A DNA stretch of 64,000 bases from an uncultured Acidimicrobiales bacterium (GTDB lineage: Bacteria; Actinomycetota; Acidimicrobiia; Acidimicrobiales; VFJN01), in assembly GCA_963842395.1 (NCBI GenBank), contig CAWJGJ010000002.1, forward strand, positions 1,397,720 through 1,461,719. Reading direction: 5' to 3'. Both the position numbers and the translations under genes were made by a program. The notes beneath the pieces are model-generated. The model was not told the DNA's origin. It ran no database searches and was given only the letters and a program-made list of their open reading frames with translations. Position 1 is the first letter of the stretch; every line of letters starts with the position of its first letter. Below are positions 58,045 to 63,034 of this stretch, piece after piece.

Positions 58045-59127
58045 TCACGGCTCCGGGATGCCGAAGATGCTCGACAGCTCGGCGGGGGCGACGGCCTCGA
58101 GCTGGTCGTAGGTGCACTCGGCCGGCAGCTTGTCGTCCCGCCAGCGCAGCAGGCGCGACGCATGGCGGAAGCGCCCGCCCATCACGTGCTCGTAGCGCAC
58201 CTCCGCCACCCGCTCGGGTCGCAGCGGCTCCCAGGTCAGGTCCTTGGTCGCGTTCCAGCGACTGGGCGCGCCCGGCATCAGGCGCCCGCTCTCGTGGGCC
58301 TGGGCCTCGGCCCACGCCCGCCACGGGTGCCCCACCAGCGCGTCCTCGCGCAGCGGGGCCACCTCGTCGACCAGCTCGCGCCGCCGGACGGCCGTGAACG
58401 ACGTGGCGACGCCGACGTTGTGCAGGTCGCCGTCGTCGTCGTACAGCCCGAGCAGCAACGACCCGATGCCCTCGCCGTCCTTGTGCCAGCGGAACCCCGC
58501 CACCACCGCGTCGGCCGTCCGCTGGTGCTTGACCTTGAGCATGGTGCGCTTGTCCTGCTCGTAGGGCCCGCCCGACGGCTTGGCCATCACCCCGTCGAAG
58601 CCGGCGCCCTCGAAGCGGTGGAACCAGTCCTCGGCCACGTCGGGGTCGTCGGTCACCGGGGTGACCCGCACGTCCGGCCGCTGCTCGCCCGGCACCGCCG
58701 ACTCCAGCAGCGCCCGGCGCTCGGCGAAGGACAGGGGGCAGAGGTCGCGGTCGTCGAGCGCCAGCAGGTCGAACGCCACGAACGACGCGGGCGTCTCCGC
58801 GGCCAGCCGGTTGATGCGCGAGCTGGCCGGGTGGATGCGCTGCTGCAGCGCCTCGAAGTCGAGGCCGTCGGCGGTGACGACGACGATCTCGCCGTCGACG
58901 ACGCAGCGCGGCGGCAGCACGGCCAGCAGCGCGTCGACCAGCTCGGGGAAGTAGCGGGTGAGCGGGCGGTCGTTGCGGCTGCCGAGCTCGACCTCGTCGC
59001 CGTCACGGAACACGACGCAGCGGAAGCCGTCCCACTTGGGCTCGAACATCAGCCCCGGTTGCCGGGGCACCTCGTAGATCGCCTTGGCGAGCATGGGCTT
59101 CACGGGCGGGGAGACAGGCAGGTGCAC
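58045..59127 (-). CDS. ATP-dependent DNA ligase (LigC-like, ligase-only)
   Basis: GTG 59127 (VHLPVSPPVKPMLAK). The adenylation motif I is EPKWDGFRC, with further motifs GEIVV and MLKVKHQRTAD and an OB-fold tail RFRHASRLLRWRDDK. 360 aa. Confidence 0.85.
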   Translation of the reverse strand: MHLPVSPPVKPMLAKAIYEVPRQPGLMFEPKWDGFRCVVFRDGDEVELGSRNDRPLTRYFPELVDALLAVLPPRCVVDGEIVVVTADGLDFEALQQRIHPASSRINRLAAETPASFVAFDLLALDDRDLCPLSFAERRALLESAVPGEQRPDVRVTPVTDDPDVAEDWFHRFEGAGFDGVMAKPSGGPYEQDKRTMLKVKHQRTADAVVAGFRWHKDGEGIGSLLLGLYDDDGDLHNVGVATSFTAVRRRELVDEVAPLREDALVGHPWRAWAEAQAHESGRLMPGAPSRWNATKDLTWEPLRPERVAEVRYEHVMGGRFRHASRLLRWRDDKLPAECTYDQLEAVAPAELSSIFGIPEP

Positions 59128-59145
59128 GAGCGCGGAGCGTAGGAG

Positions 59146-59730
59146 TTGCGCGCGCAGCCCGCACGTGCTGGCGTTTCGCGCCGCGGTGGTGTTGACTTCC
59201 CGCCGAGGCGAGCTGGGGACGGAAGGCGAGCGGCTGTCGCAGCCCTGGCATGCGTCGTGGCGTCCGCCGTGATGAGCACGGCCCCGGTGGGCGCCACCGA
59301 CGAGCCGCCGCCCCTCACGGTCACGCCCACGAGCGGCCCCGCCGGCACGGTGGTCACGGTCAGCGGCGACGACTGCGCGTTCAACAGCATCAGCATCTTC
59401 CTGGTGAAGCTGCCGTCCGCCGTCGTCGCCCAGTCCGGTACGGAATCGAACGACGACGGGTCCTGGTCGGGCACCGTCACCGTGCCCCAGGGCGCCGATC
59501 CCGCTGCCGACTACGTCGTCACCGCGCGGTGCTTCATCAGCGCCGGCGAGCAGAGCCAGGTCAAGCACGACTACGAGCAGGTGCCGTTCGACGTGACCGG
59601 CGGGCCCACGCCTACGCCGACCACGACGCCCCCGTCGGAGCCGACCGCCCCGCCGGTCATCGAGCCCGAGGCCGTGCCCGTCGCCCCGGTGGCGGTGGCG
59701 GTGGTCGCCGACCCGGACTTCGCCGGCTGA
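59146..59730 (+). CDS. secreted Ig-like (IPT/TIG-like) domain protein ending in DPDFAG (paralog 1)
   Basis: Signal-like RRAAVAALACVVASAVMSTAPVGA|TDE, a domain LTVTPTSGPAGTVVTVSGDDC...VVTARC, a Pro/Thr linker and C-terminus ...VAVVADPDFAG*. The start is uncertain. TTG 59146 is the only upstream candidate and the first codons have poor GC3. Confidence 0.55.
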   Translation: MRAQPARAGVSRRGGVDFPPRRAGDGRRAAVAALACVVASAVMSTAPVGATDEPPPLTVTPTSGPAGTVVTVSGDDCAFNSISIFLVKLPSAVVAQSGTESNDDGSWSGTVTVPQGADPAADYVVTARCFISAGEQSQVKHDYEQVPFDVTGGPTPTPTTTPPSEPTAPPVIEPEAVPVAPVAVAVVADPDFAG

Positions 59731-59789
59731 GGCTGCGGCCGTCGCCCTCACGTCACCTCCGGCTGAGGCTGCGCGGCCGTCGCCCTGAT

Positions 59790-59824
59790 GTCACCCCCCG
59801 GCCGGTGCTCGGCCGGGGGGTGAC
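59790..59824 (+). terminator. rho-independent-type terminator
   Basis: Perfect 15-bp stem GTCACCCCCCGGCCG/CGGCCGGGGGGTGAC with loop GTGCT, followed by GTCTTTCC. Confidence 0.7.
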
Positions 59825-59996
59825 GTCTTTCCCGGGGACCGGGCCACTACGGTCAGCGTCGATAGTCGGCGGAACAGTTGGGGACAGCCGCGCTGGGGAT
59901 GTGCGACGGGTGCATAGGACCCGTCAGCCCGCGTCTCGACCCGCCTGGGCGCCGGCCGTCGCACCAACCGGCGGGCACCATCTCCGAGGAGCACAG

Positions 59997-60527
59997 ATGA
60001 AGTTCAGACTGGCTGCCGCCACGGCAGCCACCGGCATCGCCGCCGCATCAACGCTGCTGTGGGTCGTCCCTGCTGCTGCGCAGGAGGAGCCGCCGGCGGA
60101 GACGGGCCCCCTGCCCCTCACCGTCGACCCCGCGTCCGGCAGCGATGCGTTGTTCACCGTGTCGGGCACCGGGTGCGTGGGCCCGCAGGGCCCCGGCACC
60201 TTCGACGTGTTCGTCGACGGGTCGCCGCTCACCAACGACGATCCCAACAACCCCGACCTCGCCGACGCCGAGGGCAACTGGTCGATCGACATCAGCCCTG
60301 CCGATCCCAGCGTCCCGCTCAGCCCGGGCGTGCTCGAGATCACGGCCACCTGCTCGGTGAACGACGCCAGCGGCACCGAGATCGTCGAGTACCTCCCGGC
60401 CAGCTACGAGATCACGGCAGCGCCGGCGCCGCCGACCACGGCTCCGCCGACCGGCGTGCCGGCTCCGCCGGTCGTCGTGGCCCCGGCCGCGGTCCCCGTC
60501 GTGGGCGACCCCGACTTCGCCGGCTGA
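59997..60527 (+). CDS. secreted Ig-like domain protein ending in DPDFAG (paralog 2)
   Basis: GAGGAG lies 6 nt before ATG 59997. The signal is MKFRLAAATAATGIAAASTLLWVVPAAAQ, the domain LTVDPASGSDALFTVSGTGC...ITATC, then a Pro-rich linker and C-terminus ...VPVVGDPDFAG*. Confidence 0.75.
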   Translation: MKFRLAAATAATGIAAASTLLWVVPAAAQEEPPAETGPLPLTVDPASGSDALFTVSGTGCVGPQGPGTFDVFVDGSPLTNDDPNNPDLADAEGNWSIDISPADPSVPLSPGVLEITATCSVNDASGTEIVEYLPASYEITAAPAPPTTAPPTGVPAPPVVVAPAAVPVVGDPDFAG

Positions 60528-60549
60528 CGCCCCCGACCGCCACGAGCGA

Positions 60550-60582
60550 ACGGCCCCGCCTCCGATCGGGAGGCGGGGCCGT
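60550..60582. terminator. bidirectional stem-loop between convergent genes
   Basis: Perfect 14-bp stem ACGGCCCCGCCTCC/GGAGGCGGGGCCGT with loop GATC. It is followed by a 17-nt tandem repeat GTTGCGCGTGCGGGGGC, 2 copies plus a partial third (60581-60630). Confidence 0.55.
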
Positions 60583-60637
60583 TGCGCGTGCGGGGGCGTT
60601 GCGCGTGCGGGGGCGTTGCCCGTATGCGCCTGGGGGG

Positions 60638-61411
60638 TCAGGCCGTGATGTGCACCGGGGTGCCGAGGGGCAGGATGCCGGCCAGCTCGGTGATGGCCTC
60701 GTTCGACATGCGGATGCAGCCGTGGCTCACGTCGGTGCCGATGGCCTCGGGCTCGTTGGTGCCGTGGATGCCGATGACGCCGGTGCCGCCGTTGAACTCC
60801 TCGAGCACGTTGGAGTACCCGGACAGCCCGTACGCGTAGGGCCCGTAGGCGCCGTTCGGATCGGGGGGCTGCAACAGCTCCTTCAGGTAGTACCTCCCGC
60901 CCGGGGTGGGCGTCGACGCCGTGCCCACGCCGATGGCCTCGTCCGCGATCACCTCGTCGCCCTTGGTCACCACCAACCGGTGCTCCGACAGGGCGACGTC
61001 GATGCTGTAGGGGTTCTCGGCCACGGTCACGTCGGCGGCCCGGATGAACCCCGTCGAGCCGTTGGGGCGGACCGGCAGCAACACCTTCAGCCACTCGCCC
61101 TGGTCCTCGTCGACCAGGAACACCAGGGGTGCGCCGTTCTCGTTGGGGTTCTCGAGGGTGGCCAGGAGCTGGTCCTCGCCGGCGGTGCCGAACACCTGCA
61201 CCTGGTCGGGCACGGCCTGGGCCACGAGCGCGCCCTGCGGCTCAGCCGGCTCGGACTCGCCGAAGGCGCCCGCGGCGGCCTCGGTGGTGGCGGTGGTGTC
61301 CGCCTGGTCGGCGTCGTCGGCGGTGCTGTCGTCCGATCCGCCGCCGCAGGCCGCCAGGGCGAGGAGCGAGGCGGCCAGCCCCATCGGGATCGCGTGTCGT
61401 CGATGAATCAC
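60638..61411 (-). CDS. L,D-transpeptidase (YkuD domain) lipoprotein
   Basis: GTG 61411 gives the signal VIHRRHAIPMGLAASLLALAAC|GGG. The YkuD catalytic motif is IGIHGTNEPEAIGTDVSHGCIRM. The rest of the 804-aa ORF-track ORF is antisense to pccB. Confidence 0.8.
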   Translation of the reverse strand: MIHRRHAIPMGLAASLLALAACGGGSDDSTADDADQADTTATTEAAAGAFGESEPAEPQGALVAQAVPDQVQVFGTAGEDQLLATLENPNENGAPLVFLVDEDQGEWLKVLLPVRPNGSTGFIRAADVTVAENPYSIDVALSEHRLVVTKGDEVIADEAIGVGTASTPTPGGRYYLKELLQPPDPNGAYGPYAYGLSGYSNVLEEFNGGTGVIGIHGTNEPEAIGTDVSHGCIRMSNEAITELAGILPLGTPVHITA

Positions 61412-61480
61412 GGCGGCGAAGGTAGCCGCCCCGGCCGGTGGTTTAGGGGCGCGGAACGGGCCCCAGGTACCGTGGCAGGC

Positions 61481-63034
61481 ATGGTCGACCATCCGATGAG
61501 CGAGCGGCTCGCTGACCTGGCCAAGCGCAAGGAAGAGGCGCTCGCTCCCGGCACCGACAGTGCGCGCGAGCGCCAGCACAACCGCGGCAAGCTCCTGGCC
61601 CGCGAGCGCATCGAGCTGCTGGTCGACCCCGGCACGTTCCAGGAGCTCGACCTGCTGGCCCGGCGCCCGGCCGAGACCGCGTTCGACGAGCGGCCCTACA
61701 CCGACGGCGTGATCTGCGGCTGGGGCATGGTCGAGGGCCGCAAGGTGTTCGTGTTCTCGCAGGACTTCACGGTGTTCGGCGGTGCGCTCGGCGAGGTCTT
61801 CGCCGACAAGATCCACAAGCTCATGGACCTGGCGCTCAAGGTCGGCGCGCCCGTGGTCGGCATCAACGACGGCGCCGGCGCCCGCATCCAGGAGGGCGTG
61901 GTCAGCCTCGACAGCTACGGCGGCATCTTCTACCGCAACGTGCAGTCCTCGGGCGTGGTGCCCCAGATCAGCGTGATCATGGGCCCCTGCGCCGGGGGCG
62001 CCGTCTACTCCCCCGCGATGACCGACTTCGTGTTCATGGTCGAGGACACCTCGTACATGTTCATCACGGGCCCCGACGTGGTGAAGACCGTCACCGGCGA
62101 GGAGGTCACCCAGCAGGAGCTGGGCGGCGCCATCGCCCACGCCTCCAAGTCGGGCGTGTGCCACTTCACCTCGGCCGACGACGCCGCCTGCCTCGAGGAC
62201 GTCCGCTACCTGCTCGGCTTCCTGCCCGCCAACAACCTGGAGGAGCCGCCGGTCGTCGCCACGGACGACGACCCCGCCCGGCCGTGCCCCGAGCTGCGCG
62301 ACCTCATCCCCGCGTCGTCGAACCAGCCCTACGACATGGTCAAGGTCATCGAGGCGGTCGTCGACGACGGCGACTACTTCGAGTACGCCCGCCGCTGGGC
62401 GCCCAACATCGTGTGCGCCTACGCCCGGCTCGGCGGCCACGTGGTGGGCATCGTCGGCAACCAGCCCATGCACCTGGCCGGCGTGCTCGACATCGAGTCG
62501 TCCGAGAAGGCGGCCCGCTTCGTGCGCACCTGCGACGCATTCAACATCCCGCTCGTCACCTTCGTCGACGTGCCGGGCTTCCTGCCCGGCGTCGACCAGG
62601 AGCACGGCGGCATCATCCGCCACGGGGCCAAGCTGCTGTACGCGTTCTGCGAGTCGACCGTGCCCCGCATCCAGATCGTCACCCGCAAGGCGTACGGCGG
62701 CGCCTACGTGGTGATGAACTCCAAGTCGATCGGCGCCGACCTCGCCTTCGCCTGGCCCTCGGGCGAGCTGGCGGTGATGGGCCCCCAGGGCGCGGTCGAG
62801 ATCGCCTACCGGCGCGAGATCCTGGCCTCGTCCGACCCCGTGGCCCGCAAGGCCGAGCTGGTCGAGGAGTACACCGACCGGTTCGCCAACCCCTACCAGG
62901 CGGCCGATCGGGGTTACGTCGACGACGTCATCGACCCCGCCGACACCCGGATGAAGCTCATCGCCGGGCTCGACATGCTGCGGTCCAAGCGCGAGGAACT
63001 GCCCAAGCGCAAGCACGGCAACGTGCCGCTGTAG
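61481..63034 (+). CDS. pccB: acyl-CoA (propionyl-CoA) carboxylase carboxyltransferase beta subunit
   Basis: 517 aa with GKLLARERIELLVDPGTFQELD, VFSQDFTVFGGALGE, MGPCAGGAVYSPAMTDF and AYGGAYVVMNSK. Substrate specificity is not decidable from sequence alone. Confidence 0.88.
   Translation: MVDHPMSERLADLAKRKEEALAPGTDSARERQHNRGKLLARERIELLVDPGTFQELDLLARRPAETAFDERPYTDGVICGWGMVEGRKVFVFSQDFTVFGGALGEVFADKIHKLMDLALKVGAPVVGINDGAGARIQEGVVSLDSYGGIFYRNVQSSGVVPQISVIMGPCAGGAVYSPAMTDFVFMVEDTSYMFITGPDVVKTVTGEEVTQQELGGAIAHASKSGVCHFTSADDAACLEDVRYLLGFLPANNLEEPPVVATDDDPARPCPELRDLIPASSNQPYDMVKVIEAVVDDGDYFEYARRWAPNIVCAYARLGGHVVGIVGNQPMHLAGVLDIESSEKAARFVRTCDAFNIPLVTFVDVPGFLPGVDQEHGGIIRHGAKLLYAFCESTVPRIQIVTRKAYGGAYVVMNSKSIGADLAFAWPSGELAVMGPQGAVEIAYRREILASSDPVARKAELVEEYTDRFANPYQAADRGYVDDVIDPADTRMKLIAGLDMLRSKREELPKRKHGNVPL

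Follow-up and report, generated by a model that had tools for sequence, protein, structure and literature searches.

In a 64,000-nucleotide stretch of DNA from an uncultured Acidimicrobiales bacterium (contig CAWJGJ010000002.1, forward strand positions 1,397,720 to 1,461,719; hereafter the window, G+C content 72.5%), two adjacent genes encode secreted paralogous proteins that both end in DPDFAG followed directly by a TGA stop codon, and a lipoprotein L,D-transpeptidase of the YkuD type is encoded convergently beside them. The motif to which this hexapeptide belongs occupies the extreme C-terminus of proteins of many families, and the genes for these proteins are linked, in both directions of search, to one L,D-transpeptidase subfamily with an intact catalytic motif. 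On balance, we favor the reading that DPDFAG is one instance of an Actinomycetota-wide sorting signal and that the YkuD lipoprotein subfamily is its cognate enzyme, by which the tagged protein would be linked to peptidoglycan. From the sequences compared here, the signal can be described by the putative tail consensus A-x-[PA]-[VA]-x-x-x-[AP]-x-[F/Y/M]-[T>A]-G-COOH, placed after a Pro/Thr/Ser/Gly-rich stalk on proteins exported by the Sec or Tat route.

A conserved C-terminal tail and its genomic partner

Both paralogs are encoded on the plus strand. Paralog 2 (59997-60527) has an ATG start and an open reading frame (ORF) whose translation gives a 176-aa product, consisting of a signal peptide (59997-60080, MKFRL...VPAAA ahead of QEE), an Ig-like beta-sandwich (approximately 60108-60416), a Pro-rich linker (approximately 60417-60494, from the translation) and the C-terminal tag VPVVGDPDFAG with its TGA stop (60495-60527), the last identified by pattern match and homologue alignment. 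Paralog 1 (59146-59730) appears in the ORF list with 194 codons from TTG 59146, and is made up of a signal-peptide-like segment at about 59224-59295 with predicted cleavage between APVGA and TDEPP, an Ig-like domain with a Cys pair, a Pro/Thr-rich linker and a terminal VVADPDFAG; its tag (AVAVVADPDFAG plus the TGA stop, 59698-59730) is an exact pattern match and is kept in relatives. Placement of the paralog 1 start codon is uncertain, since a long minus-strand ORF overlaps the gene and TTG 59146 is the sole canonical in-frame start 5' of the hydrophobic segment. The degenerate pattern GAYCCNGAYTTYGCNGGNTGA has exactly two matches in the window, at 59710-59730 and 60507-60527, against 0.02 expected, and no further ORF of the 64-kb window was found to carry a similar ending. 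No hydrophobic segment follows either stop codon in any frame. An earlier reading of this DNA made from the sequence alone (the sequence-only reading) had described two adjacent secreted paralogs sharing this ending without a transmembrane segment behind it, and the ORFs, the two pattern matches and the frame-by-frame inspection all agree with that description.

The same reading had assigned each protein an Ig- or IPT-like domain with a conserved Cys pair. The AlphaFold model of paralog 2 contains a seven-stranded beta-sandwich at residues ~40-140 with a predicted local distance difference test score (pLDDT) above 90; the best Foldseek matches of this model are Ig-like domains (KIR, LILR), with weak E values of ~1e-3, and the Cys pair (C60 and C119 in paralog 2 numbering) is invariant among 21 relatives. 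The Ig-like fold and the Cys pair are thus upheld, and the IPT assignment is not, as neither paralog gave any Pfam match at E <= 1, IPT included. Against NCBIfam, both paralogs returned sub-threshold matches only, with no CTERM or anchor model among them. As for strand exchange, in which the tail would act as donor strand of an Ig fold, or a tail folded back onto the domain, the predicted sandwich is complete by itself and the linker and tail have no secondary structure.

Homologues of the two proteins were compared at their C-terminal ends. Paralog 2 has 21 homologues, all metagenomic, and paralog 1 has nine relatives (P0022-P0030), every one of which ends in P-x-F-T-G. The tail is located at the extreme C-terminus in 29 of 29 full-length relatives with the form P-V-V-x-[EQDN]-P-[TDSPK]-[FY]-[TA]-G, while the Pro-rich linker ahead of it varies among these relatives in both length and sequence; conservation of the tail next to a variable linker indicates selection on the tail itself. 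A two-domain relative (L001) ends in NPSYTG.

Overall, the two window paralogs are 29% identical over 166 residues. Their last 21 nucleotides are identical at 20 positions and their 3' ends are diverged directly upstream of the tail codons, as the sequence-only reading had noted for the last 20 or so nucleotides. Amino-acid conservation together with GC3 (third codon position) bias accounts for this near-identity, which needs no special explanation. Gene conversion as the source of the identical 3' ends was rejected, the identity breaking off right ahead of the tail codons. The nearest relative is L208, whose proteins are 88-90% identical to those of the window; both of its paralogs (L208:5754-6278 and L208:6547-7074) end in DPDFTG. 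Relative to L208, both window genes carry an ACC to GCC change that replaces Thr with Ala at position -2 (59719-59721 and 60516-60518), a minority variant present in 1 of the 28 tails of the unbiased set described below. The shared change may have arisen by two parallel substitutions or by micro-conversion, and both tails answering to one partner would fit with either origin. The L208 and window enzymes differ at 12% of positions, three of which are in the subfamily-specific loop region described below.

The tail is not confined to the homologues of these two proteins. A forward scan of one genome per GTDB species with a codon-biased and restrictive pattern, V-x-x-[DEQNHK]-P-x-[FY]-[TA]-G-TGA, gave at least 119 loci, and all forward figures given here are among the 119 loci listed. 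All but about six of these are from Actinomycetota, mostly Acidimicrobiia (Iamiaceae, Microthrixaceae, Ilumatobacteraceae, Aquihabitans); other hosts are Nocardiopsis, Nonomuraea, Actinoallomurus, Kineosporia, Frankia, Jiangellaceae, Ornithinimicrobium, Phycicoccus, Actinotalea, Haloechinothrix, Nitriliruptoraceae and Solirubrobacterales. Outside Actinomycetota, the few matches are evident chance hits, such as those within rpoC or within an aldo-keto reductase. Several genomes contribute two or three loci, such as Aquihabitans sp. G128 (L021, L101) and the Iamiaceae metagenome-assembled genome CAZVFF01 (L012, L057, L095). The tail ORFs are ~70-1000 residues long and fall into at least ~94 single-linkage families, nearly all with low-complexity sequence rich in Pro, Thr, Ser and Gly ahead of the tail. 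Positions outside the search pattern are conserved as well, namely Pro at -10 and Ala at -12. By a crude heuristic, signal peptides were called in at least 67 of the tail ORFs, others being cut short by the edge of the locus.

Among 100 tail proteins scanned in batch against Pfam and NCBIfam, the recognized domains were typical of exported and surface enzymes and included PhoD, GH5, GH30, PI-PLC, ice-binding-like, the neocarzinostatin family, DUF11, BON, a 5'-nucleotidase akin to an LPXTG-anchored one, and choice-of-anchor Q in five proteins; no model for the tail itself was found in either database with these 100 proteins, nor did any CTERM or anchor model match them as a recurrent family. 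The PhoD-family phosphatase of locus L113 (2598-4361, minus strand) starts with a twin-arginine-type signal (MNRRAFLALLGAGGAAAA...) and ends in PGDPTYTG, and the tag is therefore not confined to Sec substrates. At the small end of the size range, Pro/Ala-rich mini-proteins of 73-86 aa from Nonomuraea end in KPAYTG (L064, L073, L096, L102). The sequence-only reading had suggested a search for proteins ending in [DE]P[DE]F[AT]G; many other proteins with such a tail do exist, and the motif in that narrow wording has given way to the general form [AP]-x-[FYM]-T-G.

The neighbors of tail genes were compared by all-against-all BLASTP of six-frame stop-to-stop ORFs from the 119 loci (blocks of eight kb) together with the window region. 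Of the neighbor clusters shared across loci, the largest consists of homologues of the window L,D-transpeptidase, which adjoin the tail gene in 30 of the 119 loci and are 42-72% identical to the window enzyme over its residues ~60-257. Relative to the tail gene, the enzyme gene is downstream on the same strand in 11 loci, upstream in eight, convergent in seven and divergent in four. It adjoins 19 different tail families, including the window Ig-like family, 75-aa mini-proteins of Nonomuraea, a 180-aa family of Actinoallomurus, 725-aa beta-helix proteins, and proteins of 580 and 900 aa, in hosts that include Actinoallomurus, Nonomuraea, Nocardiopsis, Kineosporia, Ornithinimicrobium and Acidimicrobiia. 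The other clusters that recurred comprised antisense shadows of the enzyme gene, which were discounted, generic families of paralogs, the tail proteins, and a two-component system in some loci of Streptosporangiales. No sortase-like or other enzyme was a recurrent neighbor in this clustering of the 119 loci, in which no sortase hidden Markov model was run.

In loci L039, L050, L051, L056, L073, L102 and L109, which belong to Nonomuraea, Nocardiopsis and Actinoallomurus, the enzyme and mini-protein pair is accompanied by a sensor histidine kinase and a response regulator of the OmpR type. This recurrence hints at envelope-stress control of the system.

The window enzyme is encoded on the minus strand at 60638-61411 (257 aa from GTG 61411), convergent to the paralogs. 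The convergent L,D-transpeptidase lipoprotein of the sequence-only reading is therefore real: the product matches Pfam family PF03734 with E = 3.5e-22 and 80 bits against a gathering cutoff of 23.4, carries the lipobox LALAAC with Cys22, and has an intact HGT...SHGCIRM motif. An SH3-like beta domain (residues ~61-125) is followed by the YkuD catalytic domain with His216 and Cys232 (codon 60716-60718). Its closest match in the PDB by both sequence and fold is Bacillus subtilis YkuD (1y7m; Foldseek E = 1e-10, 33% identity), and the next fold matches are LdtMt1/2/3/5, Ldtfm and the carboxypeptidases Bd1075 and Pgp2. Immediately before the HGT motif is a subfamily-specific insertion of ~12 residues (GLSGYSNVLEEFNGGTGV) whose consensus, in comparison with YkuD, is GLSG[YF]SxxLxxFxGGxG, just ahead of the catalytic His. 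This insertion has low confidence in the AlphaFold model and is presumably a flexible loop.

Across the subfamily alignment, mean column identity is 54%, the HGT...SHGC[IV]R motif is invariant, the SH3-like beta domain is present and a lipobox is usual. The catalytic residues H216, H230, C232 and R234 of the full-length window protein (H156, H170, C172 and R174 in the subfamily alignment) are invariant or nearly so, and the subfamily thus appears to be catalytically competent. At E <= 1e-20, the window enzyme has matches in more than 4000 database clusters (90% identity) under generic names such as "L,D-transpeptidase" or "lipoprotein-anchoring transpeptidase ErfK/SrfK", and no NCBIfam equivalog covering it was found. 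Names attached to enzyme homologues of 70-75% identity, together with the taxa of the related loci, place the window in Acidimicrobiales.

Linkage was also measured in the opposite direction. Metagenomes were scanned with the enzyme alignment and with no tail pattern imposed, the best 80 loci of 551 relatives were taken, and counts were made in those 62 that extend 700 nt or more upstream. In 27 of these 62 metagenomic loci, the enzyme has directly beside it an ORF with the ending [FYWM][TA]G-stop. All but one of the 27 are upstream on the same strand, with the stop codon 100-520 nt before the conserved enzyme region, and the remaining one is convergent. Endings of this type occur in 28 of 508 nearby ORFs versus 6 of the 4188 ORFs in the rest of these loci (0.14%), an odds ratio of 41 (Fisher p = 3e-22), and 26 of 30 such tail ORFs have a signal peptide by heuristic call. 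The sequence-only reading had recommended a test for co-occurrence with a specific enzyme family; co-localization with one L,D-transpeptidase subfamily is found in these loci from either side.

The 28 tails recovered by this route provide an unbiased motif, with Ala at -12, Pro or Ala at -10, Val or Ala at -9, Gly at -7 and Ala or Pro at -5, ending in Phe (22), Met (5) or Tyr (1) at -3, Thr (27) or Ala (1) at -2, and Gly in all 28 at -1. The motif is tied to the end of the reading frame: in the six-frame translation of 479 kb, [AP]x[FYM]TG occurs 52 times and is directly followed by a stop codon in 31 of these, compared to a background stop frequency of 1.4% (p = 4e-44). TGA, TAG and TAA are all used after tails. 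No tail neighbors (0 of 20) were seen for the L,D-transpeptidase clades that diverge most in a neighbor-joining tree (36-44% identity); inside the core subfamily, the variants MTG, AxFTG and PxYTG of the tail follow the enzyme clades.

Two arrangements seen in the reverse scan concern the number and size of the adjacent genes. In L189:1-5600, three consecutive genes 5' of one L,D-transpeptidase, with stops at 1113, 3813 and 4744, encode products of ~136, 852 and 268 residues that end in AAAFTG or AATFTG, and may represent a small substrate cluster. Directly 5' of the enzyme in L133, L135 and L153 are genes for mini-proteins of 68-80 aa made up only of a signal peptide, low-complexity sequence rich in Met, Ala, Lys and Gly, and a tail of the form A(A/S)(H/S)MTG.

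The sequence-only reading had raised the possibility of a C-terminal sorting or anchoring signal that lacks the usual transmembrane segment and, in view of the neighboring L,D-transpeptidase, had called attachment to the wall conceivable. Conservation in the 29 relatives, occurrence in at least ~94 families, linkage to the stop codon and co-localization with the enzyme all support a signal of this kind, whose chemistry we infer below. The ending is neither restricted to the two window proteins nor lost from their orthologs.

A candidate anchoring reaction and its alternatives

The donor required by L,D-transpeptidases is a tetrapeptide whose terminal carboxylate is free. These enzymes cut the bond between an L-center (meso-diaminopimelic acid, mDAP, or Lys) and D-Ala by way of a Cys thioester; they also swap D-Ala4 for Gly. 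Gly is the only achiral proteinogenic residue, and for this reason is able to take the place of D-Ala. We see about an even chance that Actinomycetota possess a sortase-independent form of wall anchoring in which a lipoprotein L,D-transpeptidase takes a protein as acyl donor at [AP]x[F/Y/M]-T-G-COOH, expels the Gly and amide-links the Thr carbonyl. The distribution of the tail suggests that such a pathway would be found above all in Acidimicrobiia, and also in Streptosporangiales, Micrococcales, Kineosporiales and others.

In the proposed reaction, the L-Thr-Gly-COOH end of an exported protein would fill the donor site that normally receives the mDAP(L-center)-D-Ala-COOH end of a tetrapeptide stem. 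The catalytic Cys would attack the carbonyl of Thr (or Ala, as in the window), Gly would depart, and a protein-thioester would form. The thioester would then be resolved by the amine on a side chain of a peptidoglycan stem peptide (from mDAP, Lys or Orn), leaving the protein amide-linked via its Pro-rich stalk. Under this mechanism the free carboxylate end is itself the donor mimic, which would explain why the signal is strictly C-terminal and carries neither a transmembrane helix nor a basic tail. The enzyme would have to act on the tail as donor and not as acceptor: the tail has no conserved amine, and the Ala at -2 in the window proteins rules out a hydroxyl nucleophile. The tag has apparently not been described so far; a literature search found no description of the motif or of a protein-donor L,D-transpeptidase, with most subscription journals outside the search, so that this absence is no proof.

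Several points weigh against this reading. We know of no L,D-transpeptidase that uses a protein as acyl donor, and in the known cases, Lpp and alphaproteobacterial outer-membrane proteins, it is the protein that gives the amine. The residues at -2 and -3 of the tail (Thr, Phe) are unlike mDAP or D-iso-Glu. The YkuD family also holds pure L,D-carboxypeptidases, with Bd1075 and Pgp2 among the fold matches of the window enzyme. The tail provides no membrane tether, leaving unexplained how a substrate would be captured before it diffuses off. In genomic terms, roughly 75% of the listed tail genes are not beside the enzyme and ~56% of the enzyme loci are without an adjacent tail gene; partial adjacency is expected for dispersed substrates, yet it is compatible with a looser relationship. 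Cleavage at Thr-Gly and linkage to peptidoglycan we infer purely.

One such looser relationship would be non-covalent. The tail could be a docking peptide that binds, through its free carboxylate and with no cleavage, the SH3-like domain of the enzyme or some other wall or membrane receptor, and the enzyme gene would then be linked either as a peptidoglycan remodeler acting around tail proteins or as their receptor. Two-way genomic linkage demonstrates a functional relationship and not catalysis, the enzyme carries a conserved extra beta domain, and the conserved tail of ~12 residues is longer than a minimal scissile site requires. On the other hand, an invariant terminal Gly after a small L-residue is what a D-Ala-releasing active site would demand and is not obviously needed for docking, the Cys/His motif of the active site does not vary across the subfamily, and a motif of about ten residues would offer weak affinity for retention. 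The succession of domain, Pro-rich wall-spanning stalk and signal is the architecture of covalently anchored sortase substrates, and homologous domains are covalently anchored elsewhere (choice-of-anchor Q, the LPXTG 5'-nucleotidase). We therefore hold docking to be unlikely, if still worth serious consideration. If the enzyme does act on the tail, it might also be a YkuD hydrolase that trims the terminal Gly, or a protein-protein ligase that yields polymers or fibers. YkuD-fold L,D-carboxypeptidases exist and are among the structural matches noted above, and many enzyme-adjacent substrates are tiny (45-80 mature residues of low-complexity sequence plus tail) with no obvious role as wall cargo. 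Ligation would call for an amine, however, and the Ig-like family has no conserved Lys or other amine besides its N-terminus; removal of one Gly from dozens of unrelated enzymes would have no evident purpose, and the stalk architecture and cargo (PhoD, glycosidases, nucleotidases) are better suited to surface display. Trimming or ligation is in our estimation a rather improbable account.

The two further explanations dispense with the L,D-transpeptidase as the acting enzyme. The TG end resembles the cleavage site of LPXTG and LAXTG, the stalk architecture is the same, and some cargo families are known sortase substrates elsewhere, so that the tail might be a degenerate or minimal sortase signal cut by an actinobacterial sortase of class E or F. 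This we consider very doubtful: the hydrophobic segment and basic tail are absent after the motif, its Pro (or Ala) is at -5 and not at -4 as in LPXTG, leaving only the TG pair in common, no LPXTG or other NCBIfam anchor model matched, and no sortase-like gene is a recurrent neighbor in the clustering of the 119 loci, unlike the L,D-transpeptidase. It is scarcely credible that the shared ending is a functionless by-product of recent duplication or gene conversion with the enzyme adjacent by chance or synteny. The near-identical last 21 nt of adjacent paralogs and a synteny block conserved among close relatives would be as expected from such an origin, but the low identity of the paralogs and the divergence of their 3' ends directly upstream of the tail do not fit a recent event, the tail occurs in unrelated families across several actinobacterial classes, and the enzyme linkage is seen in unrelated contexts and in all orientations and survives the reverse test with its internal controls.

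Other features of the window locus

Each paralog is followed by a strong predicted hairpin on the plus strand. The hairpin after paralog 1 (59787-59827) has an 18 bp stem and a folding energy of -42.4 kcal/mol (z = -7.95), and probably acts as a terminator lacking a U-tract; its counterpart after paralog 2 (60546-60587) folds with -41.5 kcal/mol (z = -7.92). A consensus promoter and terminator scan of 59000-61600 returned no match, the hairpin at 59787-59827 being missed because no T-run stands behind it. Read-through, frameshifting or TGA recoding into a hidden transmembrane segment was considered for the paralogs and rejected, as there is no hydrophobic stretch in any frame; this reading is also contradicted by the strong hairpins after the stops and by the use of all three stop codons after tails. 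A check for downstream hydrophobic 17-mers across loci was uninformative, since the next gene is often the enzyme with its own signal peptide.

A 38-nt tandem duplication on the plus strand at 59723-59795 (Tandem Repeats Finder: period 38, two copies, 89% matches) repeats the last codons, the stop and the first bases of the 3' untranslated region of paralog 1, in agreement with the duplication of this 3' end described by the sequence-only reading. Its second copy precedes and overlaps the first bases of the hairpin at 59787-59827, and the duplication looks like a replication-slippage scar without coding consequence. Farther downstream, a 17-nt unit (GCGGGGGCGTTGCGCGT) is present three times in tandem at 60573-60623 (94% matches), between the paralog 2 hairpin, whose 3' arm it overlaps, and the stop codon of the convergent L,D-transpeptidase gene.

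On the minus strand, an ORF at 58048-59751 that includes an ATP-dependent DNA ligase, labeled from Pfam families seen in orthologous loci, stays open across the entire paralog 1 gene; this open frame is a long-ORF overlap typical of 72% GC DNA. Gene order is kept among close relatives and comprises acyl-CoA dehydrogenase, ligase, the paralogs, L,D-transpeptidase and carboxyltransferase. Paralog 1 is absent from the relative locus L005:3200-3620, and also from L006 and L007. In L005, the spacer that separates the DNA ligase gene from the paralog 2 orthologue holds a tandem repeat reading RRRRPPSSPNPTLVVRRRP three times in one frame, and the gene call at this place (P0015, 225 aa) probably starts too far upstream.

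Implications and comparison with known systems

If the anchoring reaction proposed above is correct, it would be a third principle of covalent surface display beside the sortases and the exosortase-like enzymes, and the first case of an L,D-transpeptidase using a protein C-terminus as donor, adding a new activity to the YkuD family and a new class of sorting signal. It would supply a role for a large L,D-transpeptidase subfamily now labeled "ErfK/SrfK", and thousands of "hypothetical" or "secreted" proteins, among them phosphatases, glycosidases and nucleotidases, would be re-annotated as wall-anchored. The attribution of exoenzymes to cells would change for Acidimicrobiia of soil, marine and wastewater habitats such as Microthrixaceae. 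Carbapenems, which inactivate L,D-transpeptidases, would be predicted to strip surface proteins from these bacteria, and a three-residue tag with a one-residue leaving group could serve as a protein-ligation tool. Culturable strains of Nocardiopsis, Nonomuraea, Actinoallomurus, Kineosporia and Aquihabitans carry the system, which is therefore directly testable.

The general scheme of a C-terminal signal served by a dedicated Cys transpeptidase is a known one; provided that the proposed chemistry holds, the new elements would be an enzyme family in a sorting role, the architecture of the signal, and a polarity reversed with respect to Lpp-type attachment. The sortase systems for LPXTG and LAXTG signals, class E included, provide the closest parallel. 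In both, exported enzymes and adhesins carry a C-terminal signal behind a Pro/Thr-rich stalk that spans the wall, a Thr-Gly pair is the putative scissile site, the transpeptidase is a membrane-anchored Cys/His enzyme, some substrate genes lie beside the enzyme gene while many are dispersed, and the proposed product is amide-linked to a side-chain amine of peptidoglycan. They differ in that the tail enzyme has the YkuD fold and not that of sortase, and in that the tail motif stands at the very C-terminus, with a leaving group of one Gly in place of a transmembrane helix plus basic tail of ~30 residues. With a single Gly as the leaving group and no helix, tail proteins would have no membrane-retention step.

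YkuD enzymes are already known to join proteins to peptidoglycan, as in the attachment of Lpp by Escherichia coli LdtA/B/C (ErfK/YcfS/YbiS) and the tethering of outer-membrane proteins in Alphaproteobacteria, Coxiella and Legionella, and the site recognized in Lpp is likewise the extreme C-terminus (...YRK). In those systems, however, peptidoglycan is the acyl donor and the protein contributes the amine, either the epsilon-amine of Lys58 or an N-terminal amine. A dedicated YkuD enzyme is present in the tail system as well, but no Lys is conserved in the tail or in the mature Ig-like family, which leaves an N-terminal amine as a conceivable acceptor. A tail without an amine implies that the polarity would be reversed relative to Lpp, with the protein as donor. 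Most hosts of the tail are monoderm Actinomycetota, and the enzyme would have many unrelated exoproteins as substrates as opposed to one structural lipoprotein. A precedent for the donor side is the exchange reaction of L,D-transpeptidases, in which D-Ala4 is replaced by Gly or by non-canonical D-amino acids: the pocket accepts Gly, and ends of the form X(L)-Gly-COOH are competent donors. This exchange is known for peptidoglycan stem peptides only and not for protein C-termini.

The tail system also shares features with exosortase/PEP-CTERM, archaeosortase/PGF-CTERM, rhombosortase/GlyGly-CTERM and myxosortase/MYXO-CTERM, in each of which a short C-terminal motif on many unrelated exported proteins is matched with a dedicated enzyme; "choice-of-anchor" domains occur both there and in association with the tail. 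In the CTERM systems the motif is followed by a transmembrane helix and an Arg-rich cluster, and the enzymes are polytopic membrane proteins. The tail has neither the helix nor the basic cluster, and its partner is a lipoprotein with a soluble domain.

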